Counted from the stretch's first letter, positions 6,444 through 41,084 are shown. The stretch: DNA of 41,084 nt from a virus (IMGVR_UViG_2667527588_000007:1-41084); one strand, 5' to 3'. Program-made: numbers and translations. The notes: generated from the letters alone by a model not told the origin.

Positions 6444-6878
6444 ATGTCCGGTAATATCTATACGCTGTACAAATCCCACTGTGAAAATGTTGGAAAGTAT
6501 CGGGGCATTGAAATCAGTGGGGTAGTGTCATCAGTCGAAATAAGCAAAGTTGAATCAAGGGCAACATTACTTACTCTTCTGGACCTTGTCTTACATGAGC
6601 ACCGGAAGAAATTCGGCACTCCCTATAATCAGTTGAATGGGAAAAAGGCTCTGGTTCACCTTATTCTGATGAAGCATCACTGGATGCCAAAACAGATTAA
6701 TGAGATGAAATTTGATGAACTTCTTCTTTCAATTCAGGATGAACTCACACTTGATAAAATAAGCGTAACCGCCCAGAAATTTTTAGATTATCGAGACTGG
6801 AGATCACAAATTCATCACTTTGATGATTTTGACGAAAATGAATGGGATCCTAATTTGTCTGCACAATATCTAAAGTAA
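6444..6878 (+). CDS. hypothetical protein (AT-rich accessory gene in immunity region)
   Basis: 144-aa ORF with AAGGAA RBS, visibly AT-rich relative to neighbours; opposite strand to the leftward early operon. Confidence 0.6.
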   Translation: MSGNIYTLYKSHCENVGKYRGIEISGVVSSVEISKVESRATLLTLLDLVLHEHRKKFGTPYNQLNGKKALVHLILMKHHWMPKQINEMKFDELLLSIQDELTLDKISVTAQKFLDYRDWRSQIHHFDDFDENEWDPNLSAQYLK

Positions 6879-7056
6879 CATCCTGTGATAAAACCGTGAT
6901 TTCCTGATCCAGTTTTTTTAAGGAGTCTATTGTTTCCTGTCGATAAGACAGCACTTCACGAAGCTGGTTTATAGCTGCCAGCTTCTTTGTCATCCACTCA
7001 TAAATTTCCTCATCTGTGTAGCCAGGCGCGACGATTTTGGGTTCTGTTTTGTGCAT
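6850..7056 (-). CDS. hypothetical small protein (first gene of leftward operon)
   Basis: ATG at 7056 preceded by AGGAG RBS at 7-nt spacing; 68 aa; track start at 7071 is TTG; 3' end overlaps the 6444-6878 gene convergently by 29 nt. Confidence 0.55.
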   Translation of the reverse strand: MHKTEPKIVAPGYTDEEIYEWMTKKLAAINQLREVLSYRQETIDSLKKLDQEITVLSQDVTLDIVQTN

Positions 7057-7104
7057 TTCACATCTCCTCAAGTTATCAGTTACTTGTTGATGGGGACCAG
7101 ATTG

Positions 7105-7137
7105 TTAAAGAGCTAAGCGTCCTGTAGGGCGCTTTTT
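7105..7137 (+). terminator. intrinsic terminator-like hairpin followed by T-run
   Basis: GCGTCCTGTAGGGCGC stem-loop followed by TTTTTTG. Confidence 0.4.
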
Positions 7138-7290
7138 TGTTGCTAACGAATCATCCTGGACTTCATATGCCCCAGGCGGCTACTTCGTGGGCGTCCTGCC
7201 TGTTCGTTTTTGACATTTACTGACTGCTTACGACACATGCACCGTGTTGCAACCAGATTTTGTTGTAATCCTGTAGTTGGTCTGGAACAA

Positions 7291-7319
7291 AAGATAAAAT
7301 TAAATTGCGAGATATGCAA
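7291..7319 (-). promoter_or_regulatory. candidate leftward early promoter (PL-like)
   Basis: On minus strand TTGCAT, 17-nt spacer, TATCTT; -35 lies within an operator repeat. Confidence 0.35.
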
Positions 7320-7341
7320 GTGATATTTGCGAGATATGCAA
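7305..7341. promoter_or_regulatory. OL-like operator: two direct copies of TTGCGAGATATGCAA (TTGC-N7-GCAA)
   Basis: Identical 15-mers at 7305-7319 and 7327-7341, 22 bp centre to centre; same TTGC-N7-GCAA architecture occurs in the cI-cro intergenic region. Confidence 0.6.
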
Positions 7342-7351
7342 ATTTATAGGT

Positions 7352-7375
7352 AATAAAAAGCCACCTTTCGGTGGC
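7352..7375 (-). terminator. intrinsic terminator downstream of cI
   Basis: GCCACC-TTTC-GGTGGC hairpin with U-run on the minus-strand transcript, 20 nt after the cI stop. Confidence 0.6.
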
Positions 7376-7395
7376 CGATGGATGGGATATTGAGG

Positions 7396-8088
7396 TTAAT
7401 TATGTCTCTTAAGGGTTTGCGACTGACTGATTAAGACCTTTCCAAAGACCATGAATCGGTGTTCGTTTTCGCTAGTAATTCCCCATTCACGGTAAATCTG
7501 GTTATCAGAAATCACCAGCAGTTTGTCAGGAATCATTTGAAGTCTTTTAACGTATATTTTGTCATCAAAACCAAAGACATATATACCATCACCATCAAAC
7601 TGATTGATGCTGACATCAACGAAGATGAGATCTCCTGGCTCAATGGTTGGACACATACTGTCCCCACGAACGTTGATAACTTTGATGTGATTGGCTGGTC
7701 GTCCGCCGAACATTGATACAGCATTATCAGTTCTGTATTCGATGGCATGAATCACATCAATGACATCACCGCCCTGGATAAGGCCATTTCCCGCACTGGC
7801 ACTGATATCCAGCATTTCAATACGGAACACATCCTTCACCTGCGCAACATCCTCATTGTTACTGTTTTTATATACAGTATTACTTTTGTGGGCAGAGGTA
7901 AAGAGATCAGCAATATCAACACCTAAGCTCTTGGCAATATTACTCAGTGTTTGTTCGGTAAATTGTTTTTGCTTACCCGTTTCTAAGCGCGAGATGTTCG
8001 CCGCATCTACTCCTATCGCTTCAGCGAGATCGGCGATTTTCATGTTCTTCGCTTGGCGAAGTTGTCTGACTCGGTTTCCTATGTTCAT
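7396..8088 (-). CDS. cI: CI-type prophage repressor (XRE HTH + S24 LexA-like peptidase domain)
   Basis: N-terminal HTH (RVRQLRQAKNMKIADLAEAIGVDAANISRLETG), C-terminal S24 signature (GDSMCPTIEPGDLIFVD ... KRL); divergent from cro; no SD before ATG. Confidence 0.9.
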   Translation of the reverse strand: MNIGNRVRQLRQAKNMKIADLAEAIGVDAANISRLETGKQKQFTEQTLSNIAKSLGVDIADLFTSAHKSNTVYKNSNNEDVAQVKDVFRIEMLDISASAGNGLIQGGDVIDVIHAIEYRTDNAVSMFGGRPANHIKVINVRGDSMCPTIEPGDLIFVDVSINQFDGDGIYVFGFDDKIYVKRLQMIPDKLLVISDNQIYREWGITSENEHRFMVFGKVLISQSQTLKRHN

Positions 8089-32382: not shown

Positions 32383-32930
32383 TGAGGGCGATTGAAGCCA
32401 TGCAGCGACAACTTCTCGGCCTGATTGGGCGGGCCGTGGTGAAAAGCATCAGTGCCGCCACGAAATGTCAGACCGTGGATGTGTCCCTGATTGCCGGTGA
32501 ACCCAAAGCCGGGGTTGAACATCTTGAACCCTACGGTTTTACCGCAAGGGCAAACAGCGGTGCGGAAGCGGTGGTGTTGTTTCCGGATGGCGACCGTTCT
32601 CATGCGGTGGTTGTTACGGTGTCGGACCGGCGCTACCGCCTGAAAGGGCTGCAGACGGGTGAGGTGGCTGTCTATGACGATCAGGGGCAGTCCGTGACGC
32701 TGACCCGGGAGGGGATCGTGGTGGACGGTGCAGGTAAAACGATCACGTTTCGCAATTCACCTAAAGCACGTTTTGAAATGGACCTGGAAGTGACAGGACA
32801 GGTGAAAGACCTGTGCGACTCCAGCGGCACTACCATGTCAGCGATGCGGCTTGCCTATAACGGGCATCGTCACAGAGAGAACGGTCAGGGCAGTAACACC
32901 GACAAACCGGATAAAGCGATGGAGGCATGA
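32382..32930 (+). CDS. baseplate assembly protein V / spike (Mu gp45-like)
   Basis: 182 aa; gene order and size. Confidence 0.7.
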   Translation: MRAIEAMQRQLLGLIGRAVVKSISAATKCQTVDVSLIAGEPKAGVEHLEPYGFTARANSGAEAVVLFPDGDRSHAVVVTVSDRRYRLKGLQTGEVAVYDDQGQSVTLTREGIVVDGAGKTITFRNSPKARFEMDLEVTGQVKDLCDSSGTTMSAMRLAYNGHRHRENGQGSNTDKPDKAMEA

Positions 32931-33355
32931 TGGAACTGTGGCTGACGGTGAACGGTAAACGCACCTGCGCCAGCGCACCGCTGGATCCGCTGACCCGCGC
33001 CGTGGTGATTTCCCTGTTTACCTGGCGGCGGGCGGAGCCTGATGACAACGCCGACGTCCCGATGGGATGGTGGGGGGATACCTGGCCTGCGGTACAGAAT
33101 GACCGTTACGGCTCCCGACTGTGGCTGCTTCAGCGCAGCAAACTGACCAATCAGCTGGTGCAGACGGTAAGGGGGTATATCCGCGAATGCCTGCAATGGA
33201 TGATTGATGACGGCGTGGTGTCCCGTATTGATCTGGATATCCGCCGCACCGGGATTAATGAGCTGGGTAACAGTATCACCCTCTGGCGTCGTGACGGACC
33301 GGTAATGATTTCTTTTGATGATCTGTGGAGTGCGATAACGCATGGCGGACAGTGA
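32927..33355 (+). CDS. baseplate protein (Mu gp46-like)
   Basis: 142 aa, coupled to neighbours. Confidence 0.65.
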   Translation: MMELWLTVNGKRTCASAPLDPLTRAVVISLFTWRRAEPDDNADVPMGWWGDTWPAVQNDRYGSRLWLLQRSKLTNQLVQTVRGYIRECLQWMIDDGVVSRIDLDIRRTGINELGNSITLWRRDGPVMISFDDLWSAITHGGQ

Positions 33356-34400
33356 ATTTCAGCGCCCGACGCTGGCAGAAAATATCAGTATGCTCCGTAA
33401 CGATTTATTCGCCAGGCTGGACGTCAGCGACACGCTCCGGCGCATGGATGAAGACGTGCGGGCAAAGGTGTATGCGGCGGCGCTGCATACGGTTTACGGG
33501 TACATCGATTATCTGGCAATGAACATTCTGCCTGACCTGTGCGATGAGTCCTGGCTGGCGCGACATGCTGCGATGAAACGGTGTCCGCGCAAGGGGGCCA
33601 CGGCTGCCAGCGGGTATATGCGCTGGGAAGGTGTCAGCGATGGCCTGAAGGTGACCGCCGGGAGTGTTATTCAGCGCGATGACCTGGTGCAGTACACGGC
33701 AACTGCCGATGCAACCAGCTCCGGTGGTGTCCTGCGCGTGCCGATCGCCTGCTCAAATGCAGGCGCGGTCGGTAACGCTGACGACGGTACGGCATTAATC
33801 CTGGTCACGCCGGTGAATGGTCTGCCGTCTTCCGGTGTGGCTGACACCCTGACAGGCGGATTTGATACTGAAGAGCTGGAAACGTGGCGCGCCCGCGTCA
33901 TTGAGCGGTATTACTGGACGCCGCAGGGTGGGGCTGACGGGGACTATGTCGTCTGGGCTAAAGAAGTGCCCGGCATTACCCGCGCATGGACATACCGTCA
34001 CTGGATGGGAACGGGAACTGTCGGTGTGATGATTGCCAGCAGTGACCTGATTAATCCCATTCCGGAAGAATCAACGGAAACGGCGGCAAGACAACATATC
34101 GGGCCACTGGCCCCGGTGGCAGGCTCTGATTTGTATGTGTTCAGGCCGGTGGCACATACGGTGGATTTTCATATCCGCGTGACGCCGGACACACCGGAAA
34201 TACGGGCTGCCATCACCGCGGAGTTGCGTTCGCTCCTGCTGCGTGATGGTTATCCGCAGGGAGAACTGAAGGTATCGCGTATCAGTGAGGCGATTTCCGG
34301 TGCGAACGGGGAATACAGCCATCAGTTGCTTGCACCGGCAGACAATATCTCCATTGCAAAAAATGAACTGGCGGTACTGGGGACGATTTCATGGACGTGA
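33342..34400 (+). CDS. baseplate J-like protein (Mu gp47-like)
   Basis: 352 aa; position upstream of tail fibre genes. Confidence 0.7.
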
Positions 34401-34975
34401 CAAACGATGATTACATCCGTCTGTTGTCGGCACTGTTGCCCCCCGGTCCGGCGTGGTCAGCCAGCGATCCGGCGATTGCCGGTGCGGCACCGTCATTAAC
34501 CCGCGTTCATCAGCGTGCGGATGCCCTGATGCGGGAGCTGGATCCGCGCACCACCACTGAACTGATAAACCGCTGGGAGCGTCTGTGCGGTCTGCCGGAT
34601 GAATGTATTCCCGCAGGGACACAGACCCTTCGCCAGCGTCAGCAACGGCTGGATGCGAAGGTTAACCTGGCGGGCGGCATCAACGAGAATTTTTATCTTG
34701 CACAGCTTGCTGCCCTGGGCAGACCAGACGCTACCATCACGCGATACGACAAAAGCACGTTCACCTGCTCATCGGCCTGTACTGACGCGGTGAATGCGCC
34801 GGAATGGCGGTATTACTGGCAGGTCAACATGCCAGCCGCCACAAACACCACCTGGATGACATGTGGCGATCCCTGTGATTCCGCGCTGCGTATCTGGGGC
34901 GACACCGTTGTCGAATGTGTGCTTAACAAACTCTGCCCGTCGCATACCTACGTAATTTTTAAATATCCGGAGTAA
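34391..34975 (+). CDS. tail protein, DUF2313 / YmfQ-like (Mu gp48-like)
   Basis: 194 aa; recalled similarity to e14 YmfQ-type proteins; precedes tail fibre. Confidence 0.6.
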
Positions 34976-34978
34976 TCC

Positions 34979-35626
34979 ATGCATCGTATAGACACGAAAA
35001 CCGCGCAGAAGGATAAGTTCGGCGCGGGTAAGAACGGTTTTACCCGTGGTAACCCCCAGACAGGCACGCCTGCCACCGATCTGGATGATGACTACTTTGA
35101 CATGTTGCAGGAAGAACTCTGCAGCGTGGTGGAGGCATCCGGTGCCAGCCTGGAGAAGGGGCGAAACGACCAGTTGCTTACCGCGCTTCGTGCTCTGCTG
35201 TTAAGCCGCAAGAATCCGTTTGGTGATATCAAATCGGATGGCACGGTGAAAATGGCTCTCGAAAACCTTGGTTTGGGAGAAGCGGCAAAACGGAATGTGG
35301 GGACAGGAGAAAATCAGGTACCGGATATGAACAACTTTGGTAACTCATTGACCGCCAATGGATACCAGAAATTACCTGGGGGGATGATTATTCAATGGGG
35401 GAGTTTTTCTGTCTCACCAACCGGAGGAAGTGTTGGAACAGTTGATATAACATTACCTGTAGCTTTCCCTGCTGCTTGTCGTTCGGTAAACGCTCTTATT
35501 TCAACTAATGATCCTTCTGCCCGTTCTGTGGGCTTTGATATTGGAAGTACCAACAGAACTAAAATCAGATTTACTTACACTTCTGCTACAACAAATTCAA
35601 TTTACTGGATGGCTGTGGGGTATTAA
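34979..35626 (+). CDS. tail fibre protein (constant N-terminal part plus variable C-terminal part in current orientation)
   Basis: 215 aa; ORF crosses the left inversion site at 35258-35281 in frame. Confidence 0.75.
35258..35281. repeat. left recombination site of invertible segment (gix/hix-like)
   Basis: CTCGAAAACCTTGGTTTGGGAGAA; inverted relative to 37081-37106 with 2 central mismatches over about 20 bp. Confidence 0.7.
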
Positions 35627-35628
35627 CT

Positions 35629-36060
35629 ATGGAAAAGACATATTATTTTAATCCCTCTGATTCGGGATTTTATATTTCACCAGATAGCCAAACCATTCCT
35701 GAGAACGCTACGAAAATAAACTTTACTATTTATTCTGAGTTCGCAGGAGTTGCATGGCCTGATGGTAAAATACTTGGTTCAGATAAAAATGGTTTTCCAG
35801 CATGGCAGGATGCGCCACCACTTACCAGCGAAGAATTAATCTCAATCGCTGAATCAAATAAACAGCGATTAGTTAATCAGGCCAACGAATACATGAACAG
35901 TAAACAATGGCCTGGTAAAGCGGCGATTGGTCGTCTGAAAGGTGAGGAACTGGCGCAATATAATTTGTGGCTGGATTATCTGGACGCACTGGAACTGGTC
36001 GATACTTCCGGTGCGCCAGATATTGAATGGCCTACTCCTCCGGCAGTTCAGGCCAGATGA
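35629..36060 (+). CDS. tail fibre assembly protein
   Basis: 143 aa; C-terminal ...DYLDALELVDTSGAPDIEWPTPP motif shared with the inverted copy on the minus strand. Confidence 0.8.
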   Translation: MEKTYYFNPSDSGFYISPDSQTIPENATKINFTIYSEFAGVAWPDGKILGSDKNGFPAWQDAPPLTSEELISIAESNKQRLVNQANEYMNSKQWPGKAAIGRLKGEELAQYNLWLDYLDALELVDTSGAPDIEWPTPPAVQAR

Positions 36061-36634
36061 CATCCGGCGCGGTGCTGGTATCCGTTGCCGTCACCGCGTC
36101 AATGTAATCCAGCACAGCGTTTAGTCGGGTGGTTTCTGTCTGCGTCAGCTTCCTCCCGGCCTGCAATTTCAGTTGAATCAGACTAATGGAAGCCATTGCA
36201 GTATCAATTAGTGACTGTCGCTGTACTTCTGCCGCTTTTACTGCGGCACCATATTGTGCCTCAGTATCTGTCACCCATTTCTCACCATCCCATTTATCGT
36301 ATGGCGTTAATGGGACGATAGTGGTTGTATTTTCAGGGTAATCACCCGGAGCTGTGATTTCTTTTGATTCTCCTGTTTCAGTGCTATAGACAAATTCACC
36401 ACGATGGTCTGGCACATATATCCACGAGTTAAAATCTTCAGAACGGCAAATTGCATAACCAGTTTTGTATGGGCCAGGGGCATCTAAACAGGAACATGCC
36501 GGAATGCCGACACCAATGGCAAGATATTCTGTTGATGTGGAAATATATTCCCGCGTTTCACCATCATAATTATAAACGGTTATGTCTCCCGCTTTTATGG
36601 CAATGAGTTCGTTATTTAAGACAACTTTATTCAT
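36032..36634 (-). CDS. alternative tail fibre assembly protein (inverted orientation)
   Basis: 200 aa on minus strand; C-terminal ...DYIDAVTATDTSTAPDVIWPELP paralogous to 35629-36060 product. Confidence 0.75.
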   Translation of the reverse strand: MNKVVLNNELIAIKAGDITVYNYDGETREYISTSTEYLAIGVGIPACSCLDAPGPYKTGYAICRSEDFNSWIYVPDHRGEFVYSTETGESKEITAPGDYPENTTTIVPLTPYDKWDGEKWVTDTEAQYGAAVKAAEVQRQSLIDTAMASISLIQLKLQAGRKLTQTETTRLNAVLDYIDAVTATDTSTAPDVIWPELPEE

Positions 36635-37089
36635 CAGGCAGCCCTCACGATATAATTAAAGGCAATGTTACGAGGTCGGTTTTCGTTTGCAGTTGGAACA
36701 ACTCTGGAAGCATCGAATGTTACTCGCTTTGCATAACCACCTTTAATTGAATCCGATGAAGCATCTCCGATGACGCTGGTTGTAAAAACGCCAGAATCAG
36801 AAGGATAGGTATTGAACCTGACATCCACTAATGCACCAATTATATTTCGAATGGCATCGCCCTGTGATGAAAGCAAGCTACGGTTAGTATCTATTCCTCT
36901 TCCGTCATCCCAGCCACGAATAAACTCACCACGTAAATCTGGCAATTTATTTGTCGGATAAACTTTTGCCAGTTCCGGATACTCTTCGGCAGAAAAAGGC
37001 GCACCATTGCATTTCAGCCAGCCTGTTGGCGGAGTGGCTGAAGGCCACGGAACAGGCACACCAACGGGTAATGCCGAACCTTCTCCCAA
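36634..37089 (-). CDS. alternative tail fibre C-terminal segment (promoterless; expressed only after inversion)
   Basis: 151-aa ORF beginning inside the right inversion site; would fuse in frame (…LGLGE/GSALPVG…) to the constant fibre part after inversion. Confidence 0.65.
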   Translation of the reverse strand: MGEGSALPVGVPVPWPSATPPTGWLKCNGAPFSAEEYPELAKVYPTNKLPDLRGEFIRGWDDGRGIDTNRSLLSSQGDAIRNIIGALVDVRFNTYPSDSGVFTTSVIGDASSDSIKGGYAKRVTFDASRVVPTANENRPRNIAFNYIVRAA

Positions 37090-37106
37090 ACCAACCTTTT
37101 AGAAAA
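37081..37106. repeat. right recombination site of invertible segment
   Basis: TTCTCCCAAACCAACCTTTTAGAAAA, reverse complement of left site; directly upstream of invertase remnant. Confidence 0.7.
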
Positions 37107-37159
37107 TGCAGTAATTCCGCTCAGATGGCATGATCCAAGCTTTTTAAGGGGCATTTCTC

Positions 37160-37498
37160 ATGCTCATCGGTTATGTACGTGTGTCAACAAATGACCAGAA
37201 CACCGCATTGCAACGAAACGCACTGGAGTGCGCAGGATGTGAACTGATATTCGAGGATAAGATCAGCGGCAGATGGGGGGGCAGTCAGGGGGTTGCCCAG
37301 CTCAATTTGTTTGATGAAAACGCGCCACGCCCGGGTAGTGAGAAACTGATGGAAGTGTTGGATCACCTCAACGCCAAAGACGGCAGGGGAACCTTGTACT
37401 TTACCAGGCAGGGTATCCAGCCACAGTTGCAGATGAAACGCGAGATGCTTTCACCTAGATATACAACGAGATATGATGACATATTAAGAGTTAAATAG
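37160..37498 (+). pseudogene. serine DNA invertase (Pin/Gin/Hin family) remnant: only the first 37 codons conserved
   Basis: MLIGYVRVSTNDQNTALQRNALECAGCELIFEDKISG matches invertase N-terminus including catalytic Ser; downstream sequence in all frames lacks the remaining catalytic core; break coincides with a G7 run. Confidence 0.7.
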
Positions 37499-37517
37499 AA
37501 CATCAGCGAGGTGATAA

Positions 37518-38513
37518 ATGAAAGGGATATATTATGAGAATACTCGAACCTCTATACCGGGGTGGATATCAAACCTTCATGAAACTCAAAGGTTTGGTTA
37601 CGCTTATGAAACAAGTACTCACTTTGTTCATTTATATGGTAAAGCTGAACCTTTTAATGTCATATCAGTTGGCCTTACCGCAATACAAGGTAAAAGTGGG
37701 ACTCTAAATGATTGGGTTATAAATACATTTGGAGCAACTAACATCCAAACATTACAAAATGATATCGGACATGTTGTTGAAGGTGTCTGGAGACCATCTT
37801 TATATTATAGCGATGACATTCAAGGTGCGTTGTTAGTTGATCCGTTCGAGAAAATGTCGTCAGGACAAGCTCTGCGCAATCTTATTAATAAACTCGATGA
37901 ATTATTTTTGTACATTGAGCCAAGCATCACAGGTCTGAAAGCATATAGCCATAAATGCAGGGAGCTATTAATTTTGGCTTGTACAGAAGTTGAGAATCAG
38001 TGGGTGTCACTGATAAAAAAAACAAACCTAAATAATGTAGGGGCTAGATATACAACTAGGGACTATGTACGGCTTGCAGATAAATGTTTTTTAAAAGAAT
38101 ACAAGGTGAATTTTAAAAATTACTCAGGCTTAAGAGATTTCACACCATTTTTATCTTGGGTTCCGACTGCCTCTACTGGCTCTTTACCTTGGTACGATGC
38201 TTATAATGGAACTAAGCATGATAGGGAAGCAGGTTTTAATCTCGCATCATTGGAGAATGTGATGGATGCCTTATCTGCTTGTATAGTATTGTATTGTGTT
38301 AAATATGGACCTTATGATTTGGTGTCTGGTGGGGATCTGCTTTCAGGAACGTTTAACGAGCATTTTTCTCTTAGTTTCATAAATAGTGATAAAAGTAGCT
38401 ATTACGTTCCCGAATTGAATTTTAACGCAAACGCAATAACAGACTTGTGTGTGATTGACTGTTATAGAGAAAAACTCAACAAAGCATGGGTTACAGAACC
38501 TCTTGTTTTATAG
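37518..38513 (+). CDS. hypothetical protein (AT-rich accessory gene at invertase-proximal hotspot)
   Basis: 331 aa, GAGGTG RBS, AT-rich with Asn/Tyr-rich composition; occupies DNA that replaced the invertase 3' portion. Confidence 0.6.
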   Translation: MKGIYYENTRTSIPGWISNLHETQRFGYAYETSTHFVHLYGKAEPFNVISVGLTAIQGKSGTLNDWVINTFGATNIQTLQNDIGHVVEGVWRPSLYYSDDIQGALLVDPFEKMSSGQALRNLINKLDELFLYIEPSITGLKAYSHKCRELLILACTEVENQWVSLIKKTNLNNVGARYTTRDYVRLADKCFLKEYKVNFKNYSGLRDFTPFLSWVPTASTGSLPWYDAYNGTKHDREAGFNLASLENVMDALSACIVLYCVKYGPYDLVSGGDLLSGTFNEHFSLSFINSDKSSYYVPELNFNANAITDLCVIDCYREKLNKAWVTEPLVL

Positions 38514-39174
38514 GTAGTATTAATTCAGCACCTTGATTTTTTGTATTTCCCACGGCACGCGTCACGGCGTGCCAGATAAACGTGTCGGCAGACGCTGTAC
38601 CCTTAGCAACAATCTCCTCCACCACTCTACCTACGACATTCTGCCGTATCCACTCACGAGCTGCTTCCGGTGATAGCACCAGCGGCCGGCGATCATGAAT
38701 ATCTACCAGCCCTTTATCCGCAGCAGTAGTTACAATCAGGAACCCCTCAGCTTCATCGCCACGTTCAAATGGTGTGCTGCCAATAGCGGCCATGAATATA
38801 GGCTGGCCGTCAGCCCTGCGAATGAAGTAGGGCTGTTTTATAATGCCTTCGCGCTTCCATTCGAACCAACCATCAGCAAAGCAAATTGCACGTCCATGCA
38901 ACCAGAGAGGTTTGAACATTCGGCTGGTGGCCGCAGTTTCTGAGCGTGCGTTAATCAGCGGAGGTTTATTCCACCATCCGGGAGCGAATCCCCAGATAAC
39001 AGGATCGAGGTGCAACTGTTCGTCGCGTTCGCTCAAAAGCAGAACTTTGGTACCGGGTGCAACGTTGAATCGTCCAATTGGTTCTGGAACGTATGGGATG
39101 TCACGCTCAGCTTCTTCTGATAGGAGGGCAAGATAGTCTTCACGCGTCATTGATTGGGCGAAACGTCCGCACAT
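38491..39174 (-). CDS. SOS-response-associated peptidase (SRAP / YedK-like abasic-site processing protein)
   Basis: N-terminal MCGRFAQ with catalytic Cys2; 227 aa; GGAGG RBS. Confidence 0.8.
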   Translation of the reverse strand: MCGRFAQSMTREDYLALLSEEAERDIPYVPEPIGRFNVAPGTKVLLLSERDEQLHLDPVIWGFAPGWWNKPPLINARSETAATSRMFKPLWLHGRAICFADGWFEWKREGIIKQPYFIRRADGQPIFMAAIGSTPFERGDEAEGFLIVTTAADKGLVDIHDRRPLVLSPEAAREWIRQNVVGRVVEEIVAKGTASADTFIWHAVTRAVGNTKNQGAELILPIKQEVL

Positions 39175-39217
39175 AGAAACCTCCAGTCACCAGACTGAAA
39201 GTATAGGGTAGGGATAC

Positions 39218-39242
39218 AAAAAAGCCCGCATAAGCGGGCTTT
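39218..39242 (-). terminator. intrinsic terminator (minus-strand orientation)
   Basis: GCCCGC-ATAA-GCGGGC hairpin with A6 on plus strand (U-run on minus-strand transcript). Confidence 0.6.
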
Positions 39243-39370
39243 CATGTCACTCGGGAGCCGCGGCTCCTTTACGTATCCTTTTTTGTCTCCTCACCGTCTA
39301 GTCGGTGTCCTGCTGAGACTGCTAACTTCCTGTTTTTGTTAGTGCTGTCCTGGCACTGTCCAATCATGAT

Positions 39371-39398
39371 TGGTGGAGCTGGCGGGAGTTGAACCCGC
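39371..39398 (-). other. 28-nt fragment identical to the 3' end of tmRNA (ssrA); probable att-site remnant
   Basis: Minus strand reads GCGGGTTCAACTCCCGCCAGCTCCACCA, the T-arm and acceptor 3' end of E. coli tmRNA as recalled; upstream sequence does not continue the tmRNA. Confidence 0.55.
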
Positions 39399-39689
39399 AG
39401 ACACGTCGTATGCAAGAACTTGCTGCGGCTGGATGGTGGACTTTCGATAGTGCGAGTATTGAATGATGTCCAGCCGTTATTGATTTTACGTATTTTTTGC
39501 ATGAAAAGATTAGCACCTCATCCCACCGCTCCTCCATGATTTTACACCACTGTCTCTAGAGCTCTGTGTGCCAGAAGCGGAAGTTCATACCTCTAAGTGG
39601 ATATTTTGTTAAAATATGCCATCAAAATCCTTGCTACCTCATGGTTGACAGTGATAAAAGTTGCACAAATTACTGAGAGAGAAATTACA

Positions 39690-40127
39690 ATGAGTGGAGA
39701 TACCTCTGAGTTTCCTAATAAACTTCCCAGAAAGCCAATAGGTTGGCGTGAAGAATATAGTGATTTTACAGGTAGTATTATATTCTATATGATATTCCCG
39801 TTGCTTCCATTACTTTTTGAGTCAATTAACACAGGAACTCACCCTTCAATACAATCATTAACAATTACTGCATCAATATACTCTTTTTCCATCGGTGTAT
39901 CTTCTCGAGATAAAGCTATTTTTTGCTTAGGGATTTTTTGTGGTTTCATTCTCGCTTATCTTTACGGTAAAGTTAGTGAGCCAAAAGTTATTATATATAC
40001 CTGGTACTATGTAGTTACGGTGATACTACTGGCTGTAATATTTATATTTCATCTTCTCGAACGATTTAATAAACACGTGGTAGAATGTGAACCTGTTTTC
40101 TCCTTTAAGTTTACGAGAGGTATGTAA
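39690..40127 (+). CDS. hypothetical multi-pass membrane protein
   Basis: ATG at 39690 preceded by purine-rich GAGAGAGA and a TTGACA -35-like motif (39645-39650); AT-rich; several hydrophobic segments; track start at 39597 is GTG. Confidence 0.5.
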   Translation: MSGDTSEFPNKLPRKPIGWREEYSDFTGSIIFYMIFPLLPLLFESINTGTHPSIQSLTITASIYSFSIGVSSRDKAIFCLGIFCGFILAYLYGKVSEPKVIIYTWYYVVTVILLAVIFIFHLLERFNKHVVECEPVFSFKFTRGM

Positions 40128-40594
40128 TGGAGGATATTATATTTATGTATGCTGGGTTGATAGTGTCTTCTTTAGCGGCAATTGTAGGCTTAGCTACATC
40201 TATCATGCATACTCGTAAAAAAGTTAAAGCTAATGAAGAGCTTGCAACTGAAATGGCAAAGAGCTTTAGTGAGCTTGAATCTATCAATAAAAGCATAGGG
40301 GATTTGGAAGCGACAATTAAAAGGATAGATGAAGATGAATTAAAGTTAAGAATAGCAATTGAATCTTTAAAGGAAATGACTTCTGATGAAAAAAAAGAAT
40401 CTAGGGATATGTTGAAAAACATCGTTAATGATGAGGTGTTCATTAAAGTTCTTCTCGAAAGCTATAAAAAACTGGATACCCAGTCAAAGAAGGAGATTTA
40501 TTTGACTTTTTCCAAGTCGACAGATAGAGGCCTTTATCGATATATAAAAAGAATAGCTTCATCAGTACTCGATAACTTAATGGTTAAAATATAA
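40127..40594 (+). CDS. hypothetical membrane-anchored coiled-coil protein
   Basis: TAATG coupling to upstream gene; GAGAGG RBS; N-terminal TM helix followed by Glu/Lys-rich helical region; AT-rich. Confidence 0.55.
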   Translation: MEDIIFMYAGLIVSSLAAIVGLATSIMHTRKKVKANEELATEMAKSFSELESINKSIGDLEATIKRIDEDELKLRIAIESLKEMTSDEKKESRDMLKNIVNDEVFIKVLLESYKKLDTQSKKEIYLTFSKSTDRGLYRYIKRIASSVLDNLMVKI

Positions 40595-40949
40595 ATGCGT
40601 GCGCGCGAGATACAATTTCTCGCGCATTGTGTAACCGGCGACAAAACCCTGTTATCATTATAGCGACCCGTTTAGATGGGCCATTTGTGCCCCAACAGCT
40701 TCTGGGTATAGATTTCCTCGGCCCTGTATAGATACTTTGCTAAAGAGTATTTTAATGGTATTTTGCTTACGTACTATTCTTCTAACGAATGTCTGCCTTA
40801 TCCTGTGAGCTGCCTTCGCTCAGCATTGGCCTGTTTCTCGTTGATTTATATACTGCGACACTAACATAGGCGGATATGTCCGCTCCTCGCTCATAACAGA
40901 CATTCACTACAGTTATGGCAGAAAGGTATGCATGCTGGGTGGGGAAAGT

Positions 40950-41084
40950 ATGAAGGAAAAGAAAACTGCTGCGCTGTTTGTCGTCACGTTTATCTTCATT
41001 GGCTATGCAAGTCATAATACAAGGTGGGACAAAACTGAGACACATAAGGCCTCACAATGGCTTGCAAGGCTTTACATGTTTTGA
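40950..41084 (+). CDS. small hydrophobic peptide ORF ending exactly at window end
   Basis: MKEKKTAALFVVTFIFIGYASHNTRWDKTETHKASQWLARLYMF (44 aa) with GGGGAAAG upstream; stop TGA is the last three bases of the window. Confidence 0.3.
   Translation: MKEKKTAALFVVTFIFIGYASHNTRWDKTETHKASQWLARLYMF

Follow-up and report, generated by a model that had tools for sequence, protein, structure and literature searches.

The P segment of an e14-family prophage has lost its own invertase, yet a serine invertase from elsewhere in the cell probably goes on flipping it in trans, and does so recurrently. The segment lies near the right end of a viral stretch of 41,084 nucleotides (IMGVR_UViG_2667527588_000007:1-41084, here called the window), and by its sequence the element is a Din-type (Gin/Pin/Cin/Hin) tail-fibre switch of the e14 P, Mu G and P1 C class. 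Inversion between two 26-bp crossover sites joins a constant fibre N-terminus of 101 aa to either of two C-termini, each with its own assembly chaperone. A Gp53-like C-terminus gives a fibre of 215 aa, the form present in the window (state A), and a Collar C-terminus gives one of 249 aa (state B). A deletion of about 2 kb has taken the invertase from codon 38 on, all of umuD and most of umuC, leaving the prophage unable to make its own enzyme. The same deletion spared both crossover sites and the putative enhancer region. In the proposed mechanism the segment would thus remain a competent substrate, and a related serine invertase, for example from another prophage or a plasmid in the cell, would flip it again and again.

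The surroundings of the switch place it in an E. coli prophage. The window's left flank consists of proA and a tRNA-Thr gene, 99.9% identical to E. coli, followed by an integrase. Past the integrase come genes for a CI-type repressor, terminase, portal, capsid, sheath and tape measure, and Mu-type baseplate genes precede the switch: Pfam identifies Baseplate_J and Gp48, and gp45 and gp46 are found in matching contigs. The element is apparently the complete prophage of a myovirus, some 38 kb long, with thrW of E. coli as its integration site. When 37000-41084 was searched for attR, no direct repeat of 12 nt or more matched the 3' end of tRNA-Thr, and the right prophage boundary is not fixed by such a repeat.

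Kinship with e14 is close. Positions 34000-35297 are 96.5% identical to the ymfQ-stfP region of K-12 e14, and synteny with high nucleotide identity runs from ymfQ to the fibre switch. Together with a left crossover site identical to that of e14 and a state B chaperone gene (36032-36634) with about 87% nucleotide identity to K-12 tfaE, this similarity indicates that the locus is the e14 P segment itself, housed in a full-length e14 relative, and not a mere lookalike. The ymfQ-fibre-pinE arrangement occurs in hundreds of E. coli genomes, and about 3300 of 5426 complete E. coli genomes match some part of the query 34900-38600.

A repeat finder run over 33000-39500 returned just one outstanding inverted pair, with arms of 24 nt at 35259-35282 and 37080-37103 that are 88% complementary and separated by 1797 nt. 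The perfect 15-nt core of the pair, TTGGTTTGGGAGAAG, has exactly two copies in the window, one per strand. Even if up to two mismatches are tolerated, chance alone would produce 0.10 matches, and not one shuffle in 100 contained two or more. The features of the switch and its right-hand neighbourhood are, in window coordinates:

34979-35267, + strand: constant 5' part (Sc) of the tail-fibre gene (ORF 34979-35626; in-silico flip)
35256-35281, no strand: left crossover site, CTCTCGAAAACC-TT-GGTTTGGGAGAA, 26 bp, central dinucleotide TT at 35268-35269
35268-35626, + strand: variable fibre C-terminus of state A, the window's state (Gp53-like_C, Pfam PF21882, E = 3e-18; PHROG tail-fibre families)
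35629-36060, + strand: tail-fibre assembly chaperone of state A, 143 aa (Pfam Caudo_TAP, E = 2e-29; phrog_188)
36032-36634, - strand: tail-fibre assembly chaperone of state B, 200 aa, TfaE-like (Pfam Caudo_TAP, E = 7e-31; phrog_105)
36634-37094, - strand: alternative fibre C-terminus of state B, Collar domain (Pfam Collar, E = 5e-15)
37081-37106, no strand: right crossover site, TTCTCCCAAACC-AA-CCTTTTAGAAAA, 26 bp, central dinucleotide AA at 37093-37094
37160-37273, + strand: remnant of a Pin/Gin-family invertase, 37 codons (Pfam Resolvase; alignments with intact genes)
37182-37244, no strand: putative Fis-dependent recombinational enhancer (position; homology to intact systems)
37274-37498, + strand: 3' remnant of a umuC-like Y-family polymerase gene (Pfam DUF4113, E = 2e-20; in-frame fusion to the invertase remnant)

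The two crossover sites are imperfect palindromes of 26 bp in inverted orientation, and their central dinucleotides, TT and AA, agree once that orientation is allowed for. Both align column for column with gixL and gixR of Mu, and both align with the sites of e14, where K-12 has exactly the same left site. On the right, two relatives (L005 and L006) have the identical site next to intact invertase genes.

Between the sites lies a typical cassette, with a constant N-terminus outside the segment, alternative C-termini that come into frame with it, and a chaperone gene for each. As it stands in the window, ORF 34979-35626 encodes the complete state A fibre of 215 aa. An in-silico flip brings the minus-strand Collar C-terminus into frame with the constant N-terminus to encode a fibre of 249 aa, the first 101 residues being common to both forms. 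The two Caudo_TAP genes are oriented face to face. Gp53-like_C and Collar are unrelated domain families in Pfam, and the two C-termini likely recognise different receptors, through which the two fibres would confer different host ranges.

Beyond the right site, the ORF at 37160-37498 encodes a protein of 112 aa in which Pfam detects Resolvase at residues 3-39 only and DUF4113, the UmuC C-terminus, at residues 61-111. The invertase part is 86% identical to the N-terminus of Mu Gin over 37 residues and retains the catalytic serine motif YVRVSTNDQ. The fusion protein was considered as an active invertase and rejected, as it is without the rest, and hence most, of the catalytic domain and without the whole DNA-binding domain. 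Homology to intact invertases stops at 37271-37273 in every comparison, whether with pinE of E. coli M8, with 94 phage records, or with K-12 e14, LP50-1 and Res13-Sevr-PER07-33. The 114 nt of the remnant are identical to the start of the intact gene in L006, and the same relative has an intact gene for a Y-family polymerase whose 3' end is 84% identical to positions 37282-37455. E. coli Res13-Sevr-PER07-33 displays the undeleted layout: fibre segment, intact 183-aa recombinase, umuD, umuC (the Y-family polymerase), cargo and an SRAP gene. Compared with it, the window is missing about 2 kb, from about nucleotide 115 of the invertase gene to about nucleotide 1050 of umuC. The lost enzyme is of a sister type to PinE that has 183 aa in intact relatives, and only 37 of its approximately 183 codons are left. 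In E. coli TB06052, which has the same junction, both pieces are already annotated as pseudogenes (PGAP).

No functional small serine invertase, with a catalytic domain and a C-terminal helix-turn-helix, adjoins the segment. A tblastn search of the window with three intact invertases matches only 37160-37366; as the window holds no other invertase, inversion needs a recombinase in trans. Searches with the exact 42-nt invertase-umuC junction gave no matches in JGI metagenome contigs and none in GTDB species-representative genomes. PADLOC reported nothing for a 331-aa ORF, the SRAP gene or the fusion ORF, and Pfam had no match for the 331-aa ORF. Up to this point the initial annotation stands, its coordinates included: it had described inverted gix/hix-like sites around two opposed sets of fibre C-terminus and chaperone, recognised the architecture of Mu G, P1 C and e14 P, noted that the adjoining invertase is truncated, and concluded that inversion would depend on a recombinase supplied in trans.

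What the deletion left behind matters as much as what it removed. In cis, Din-family invertases need two crossover sites and an enhancer bound by Fis, whose sites in the enhancer are spaced 48 bp apart. The stretch 37182-37244, within the invertase remnant, contains two putative Fis cores of 15 bp each, a proximal one, TGTCAACAAATGACC, at 37182-37196 and a distal one, GCGCAGGATGTGAAC, at 37230-37244. Their assignment draws on published geometry and on the hin sequence. The core centres are 48 bp apart, with about 95 bp between the crossover point and the proximal one. Of the two cores, the distal one conforms to the strict Fis consensus GNNYRNNWNNYRNNC, and the proximal one has no G at the conserved position -7; matches to the degenerate consensus turn up about three times per kb across the window. 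The enhancer of Hin is 65 bp long with a Fis site at each end and sits within the codons for the N-terminus, the nearest site being about 100 bp away, a geometry with which the position of 37182-37244 agrees (PMC3798978, PMC2724282). The region is also conserved with Mu gin and is retained in a form identical to the intact relative Res13-Sevr-PER07-33, the deletion starting about 29 bp past it. By these features the stretch is a candidate Fis-dependent enhancer. Since neither the right site nor the gene's first 114 nt differ at any base from Res13-Sevr-PER07-33, all cis requirements appear to be intact and the enzyme alone missing.

Evidence for continued inversion comes from other isolates with the same truncation. 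The exact 112-aa fusion protein, sought in public assemblies, is present in 69 blocks, and ten places (L009-L018) are among the matches listed. One of them, L009 (GCA_001419845.1), agrees with the window at every one of the 8925 nt compared. With an identical fusion ORF in each case, L009-L013 and L017 are in state A and L014, L015, L016 and L018 in state B, among the matches listed. The state B contigs encode the 249-aa Collar fibre and the 200-aa chaperone on the plus strand and the 143-aa chaperone on the minus strand. Over 23 places the tally is about 12 in state A to about 11 in state B, assuming that similar places beyond those listed share the orientation of their listed counterpart; such proportions are what a freely flipping switch would give.

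The exchange maps to the crossover sites. Neither outer half-site changes in state B contigs, and immediately interior to the common core there is a swap, GCGGCAAA for GGTTCGGC. Re-inverted, the state B segments show no mismatches to the window over 1827 nt. Conversely, the window flipped in silico at the central dinucleotides differs from L014, L015 and L018 by 1-2 SNPs over 6593 nt, and the 249-aa ORF that results is identical to the fibre encoded in all three. Strain KS-NP019 also has this segment, at 98.6% identity, in inverted orientation next to an intact pinE.

These contigs bear directly on the view, taken in the initial annotation, that a single host-range state is probably all that is left to the prophage. 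Such a switch, frozen in the Gp53-like fibre state and confined to a single host range once its invertase was gone, would fit an enzyme reduced to 37 codons with no second invertase in the window. It would also fit the state A orientation of the window, of TB06052 and of five other assemblies (four from NCBI, one from ENA), and the Keio deletion of pinE does lock the P segment of K-12 (PMC12529663). However, the identical fusion ORF accompanies state B in four contigs, the in-silico flip reproduces them, and three near-identical haplotype groups hold both states, all of which makes a frozen segment unlikely. At the level of the lineage, locking is contradicted by the occurrence of one and the same fusion ORF in both orientations. 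Locking may hold for a single strain without a compatible invertase, and the window's own strain may be without a suitable one and hence fixed in practice.

The haplotype groups also speak to the order of events. In the first, L010 (state A) and L015 (state B) have in common all five SNPs, at 34003, 39320, 39327, 39740 and 40775, which fall on both sides of the segment. In the second, L011 (state A), L014 and L018 (both state B) share a SNP at 32458 and all depart from the window at 38753, a position inside the SRAP gene at which L011 and L014 carry an IS insertion (transposase genes) and the L018 contig ends. The third has the second segment allele and comprises TB06052 and L017 (state A) and L016 (state B), 0-1 SNP apart. 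The junction and 1640 nt of right flank are identical in all loci compared. Most simply, the truncation would have happened once and at least three inversions would have followed it.

The left flank and segment tell a more mixed story, as they come in two alleles about 2-6% apart. Set against a right flank that is uniform over 1640 nt, these alleles imply that some recombination occurred in the prophage family. The orientation polymorphism could on that basis be older than the truncation, the truncated junction having spread by homologous recombination into prophages of either orientation. At least three such events would be needed, however, each of them keeping the SNPs on both sides alike in state A and state B members. 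Inversion within each haplotype is far simpler, and a polymorphism that predates the truncation is highly improbable.

Recurrent inversion after the truncation might in principle proceed without any invertase, by RecA-dependent or illegitimate recombination at the short inverted repeats, and the exchange point can indeed be placed only somewhere in the shared 15-bp core. RecA has a minimum efficient substrate of about 23-27 bp, which exceeds the 15 perfect bases available here. Moreover, three or more independent events in a couple of dozen near-identical sequences would imply a high rate, and the core holds the crossover dinucleotide of a canonical invertase site. A route of this kind is judged slightly less probable still than an older polymorphism, and site-specific inversion by an invertase is the preferred reading.

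By source, state B occurs in four contigs, all of them from Logan, whereas each of six assemblies from elsewhere (four from NCBI, one from ENA, and TB06052 from RefSeq) shows state A; this confinement is tentatively attributed to chance or sampling. Because Logan assemblies are automated, the state B contigs might be artefacts of assembly. The Logan word length, presumably about 31, is longer than the perfect repeat of 15 nt (24 nt imperfect), so real reads must span both junctions. The state B contigs come from four separate runs (ERR5311152, SRR8040862, ERR13370019 and SRR28439282) and represent two segment alleles, and another Logan contig, L017, is in state A. Misassembly is the least probable of the explanations considered.

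For a prophage with no enzyme of its own, inversion requires a donor. Invertases of the Din family substitute for one another, and the trans-acting enzyme would presumably be a related serine invertase. Experimental precedent exists in the e14 P segment, which PinQ of prophage Qin inverts in trans (Kirigo et al. 2025, PMC12529663). In TB06052, megablast finds the pinE-like 5' end at one place in the record and no second copy, so that a more distant invertase would be needed there.

Retention of the enhancer may distinguish the natural deletion from an engineered one. The Keio design deletes nearly the whole ORF, and a pinE deletion of this design loses the enhancer region too. In K-12 that deletion locks the P segment despite the presence of pinQ and pinR, and the word 'enhancer' is absent from the main text of the report (PMC12529663). 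It is plausible that retention of the enhancer is the reason why the natural deletion still flips, unlike the Keio pinE deletion. More tentatively, the deletion endpoint may be no accident: the locus could be an 'orphan' switch that keeps only its cis elements, with flipping and host range set by co-resident prophages or plasmids that bear an invertase, and with the retained enhancer separating it from the locked Keio deletion. This stronger version is possible but doubtful. If it is true, the locking published for the Keio pinE strain needs a new reading, in which the missing enhancer, rather than any need for PinE, is responsible.

Much of this is familiar ground: the kind of system, the annotation of the pseudogenes in a RefSeq genome, and trans-complementation, which is textbook knowledge. 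Understanding of how Din-type systems work is unchanged, and the present result mainly corrects an inference. A pseudogenised invertase beside an invertible segment is no proof of a frozen switch, because enzymes of the Din family work in trans and several are often present in one E. coli genome. Such loci would be better annotated as "cis-competent, trans-dependent", and no switch should be declared dead until its crossover sites, and the enhancer at the start of the invertase gene, have been inspected. Comparison with this locus also suggests a simple explanation for the recently published locking of the K-12 pinE deletion, namely loss of the enhancer.

The nearest known system is the e14 P segment of K-12 with its invertase PinE. 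The two are of the same family, occupy the same place after ymfQ and have an identical left site and an identical inner half of the right site, with 96.5% identity in the constant fibre part and about 87% in tfaE. Both segments are about 1.8 kb long, with convergent chaperone genes that have the same 29-bp overlap (PMC12529663). On the other hand, e14 of K-12 is a 15-kb remnant at icd, whereas the prophage described here is full-length and lies at thrW. The plus-strand fibre C-terminus is another allele, there are 3 nt differences in the outer half of the right site, and the invertase is of the sister type (183 aa in intact relatives) and truncated. The action of PinQ from Qin on the e14 P segment demonstrates the mechanism needed here, in which the invertase of one prophage flips the fibre segment of another (PMC12529663), although in K-12 the resident pinE is intact.

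The G segment of Mu with Gin and the C segment of P1 with Cin follow the same plan of Sc, Sv-U, U'-Sv' and invertase, and their 26-bp sites align base for base with those of the window; the resemblance to Mu extends to the Mu-type baseplate genes gp45-gp48 upstream. Their segments are larger, at 3 kb and 4.2 kb compared with 1.8 kb, and the fibres here are much shorter (215 and 249 aa) and accompanied by no functional invertase. The Hin/hix system of Salmonella likewise has 26-bp sites with a degenerate outer half-site adjoining the invertase gene (PMC3798978, PMC2724282). Unlike the present switch, it controls a promoter rather than a fibre gene fusion, and its invertase gene lies inside the inverted segment, whereas here the remnant of that gene lies outside.

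The invertible tail-fibre segment has a second allele (L001, L016 and L017), which measures 1878 nt as against 1827 nt. Its differences from the window lie chiefly in the central part of the Collar-domain fibre C-terminus (36683-36901), where about 200 nt have no nucleotide match. This allele is joined to the identical truncated invertase junction, and that indicates that recombination inside the segment took place after the deletion or around the time of it.

Escherichia coli NADC1036 (contig L007, 3501-5351) carries the same invertible cassette, 98.5% identical, within an unrelated phage backbone that has a DUF2612 baseplate and lies near tonB. The outer half-sites and the invertase are that backbone's own, so that sharing is confined to the segment with its inner half-sites. 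It looks as if phage families swap whole cassettes at the crossover sites.

In E. coli LP50-1 (contig L005), the inner half of the left crossover site at 2690-2710 is a variant that reads GGTTTGGGAACA. Annotation marks stfP, which lies upstream, as truncated, even though the LP50-1 invertase is intact. The site side of this switch, not the enzyme side, may be what is disabled.

The right arm of the prophage family carries a DNA-damage-tolerance module whose decay differs between members. The stretches compared, and the elements discussed with them, are as follows.

Window 37274-39174: right-arm module
L006 5741-9718: right-arm module of E. coli Res13-Sevr-PER07-33
L005 5834-9142: right-arm module of E. 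coli LP50-1
Window 37518-38513, + strand: 331-aa ORF
Window 39597-40594, + strand: two small neighbouring ORFs, function unknown, on the right-hand side of the SRAP gene
L011 and L014, ~6594-7850: IS3-family element whose transposase contains HTH_Tnp_1 and rve domains

In Res13-Sevr-PER07-33, intact umuD and umuC are followed by a P-loop NTPase and then a SRAP pseudogene. In LP50-1, umuC is reduced to a 3' fragment and the SRAP gene is interrupted by an IS421 element. In the window the SRAP gene is intact, and with it are a umuC 3' fragment and the 331-aa ORF, which has no known function. Some otherwise near-identical prophage copies have the SRAP gene split by the IS3-family element, at window position 38749-38753, and this insertion was used as a lineage marker; the contig end of L018 falls at the same position as the insertion of L011 and L014.

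The sole match of the 331-aa ORF is phrog_19461, a family of unknown function matched over the full length (E = 5e-139), with none in Pfam or PADLOC, and E. coli TB06052 gave the only match to its DNA by megablast among 5426 complete E. coli genomes. Within 39597-40594, a 176-aa ORF matches phrog_22626, and the PADLOC matches of a 155-aa ORF to capH and LmuB are marginal (E ~0.005). This stretch is kept at the right of related prophages in a few E. coli genomes.

Window 37182-37244, the putative Fis enhancer, invites comparison with K-12, where the e14 P segment was found to be locked by a Keio deletion of pinE even though PinQ and PinR are present (PMC12529663); the word "enhancer" is absent from the main text of that paper. 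The K-12 locking may stem from loss of the Fis enhancer within pinE, rather than from a requirement for the PinE protein.
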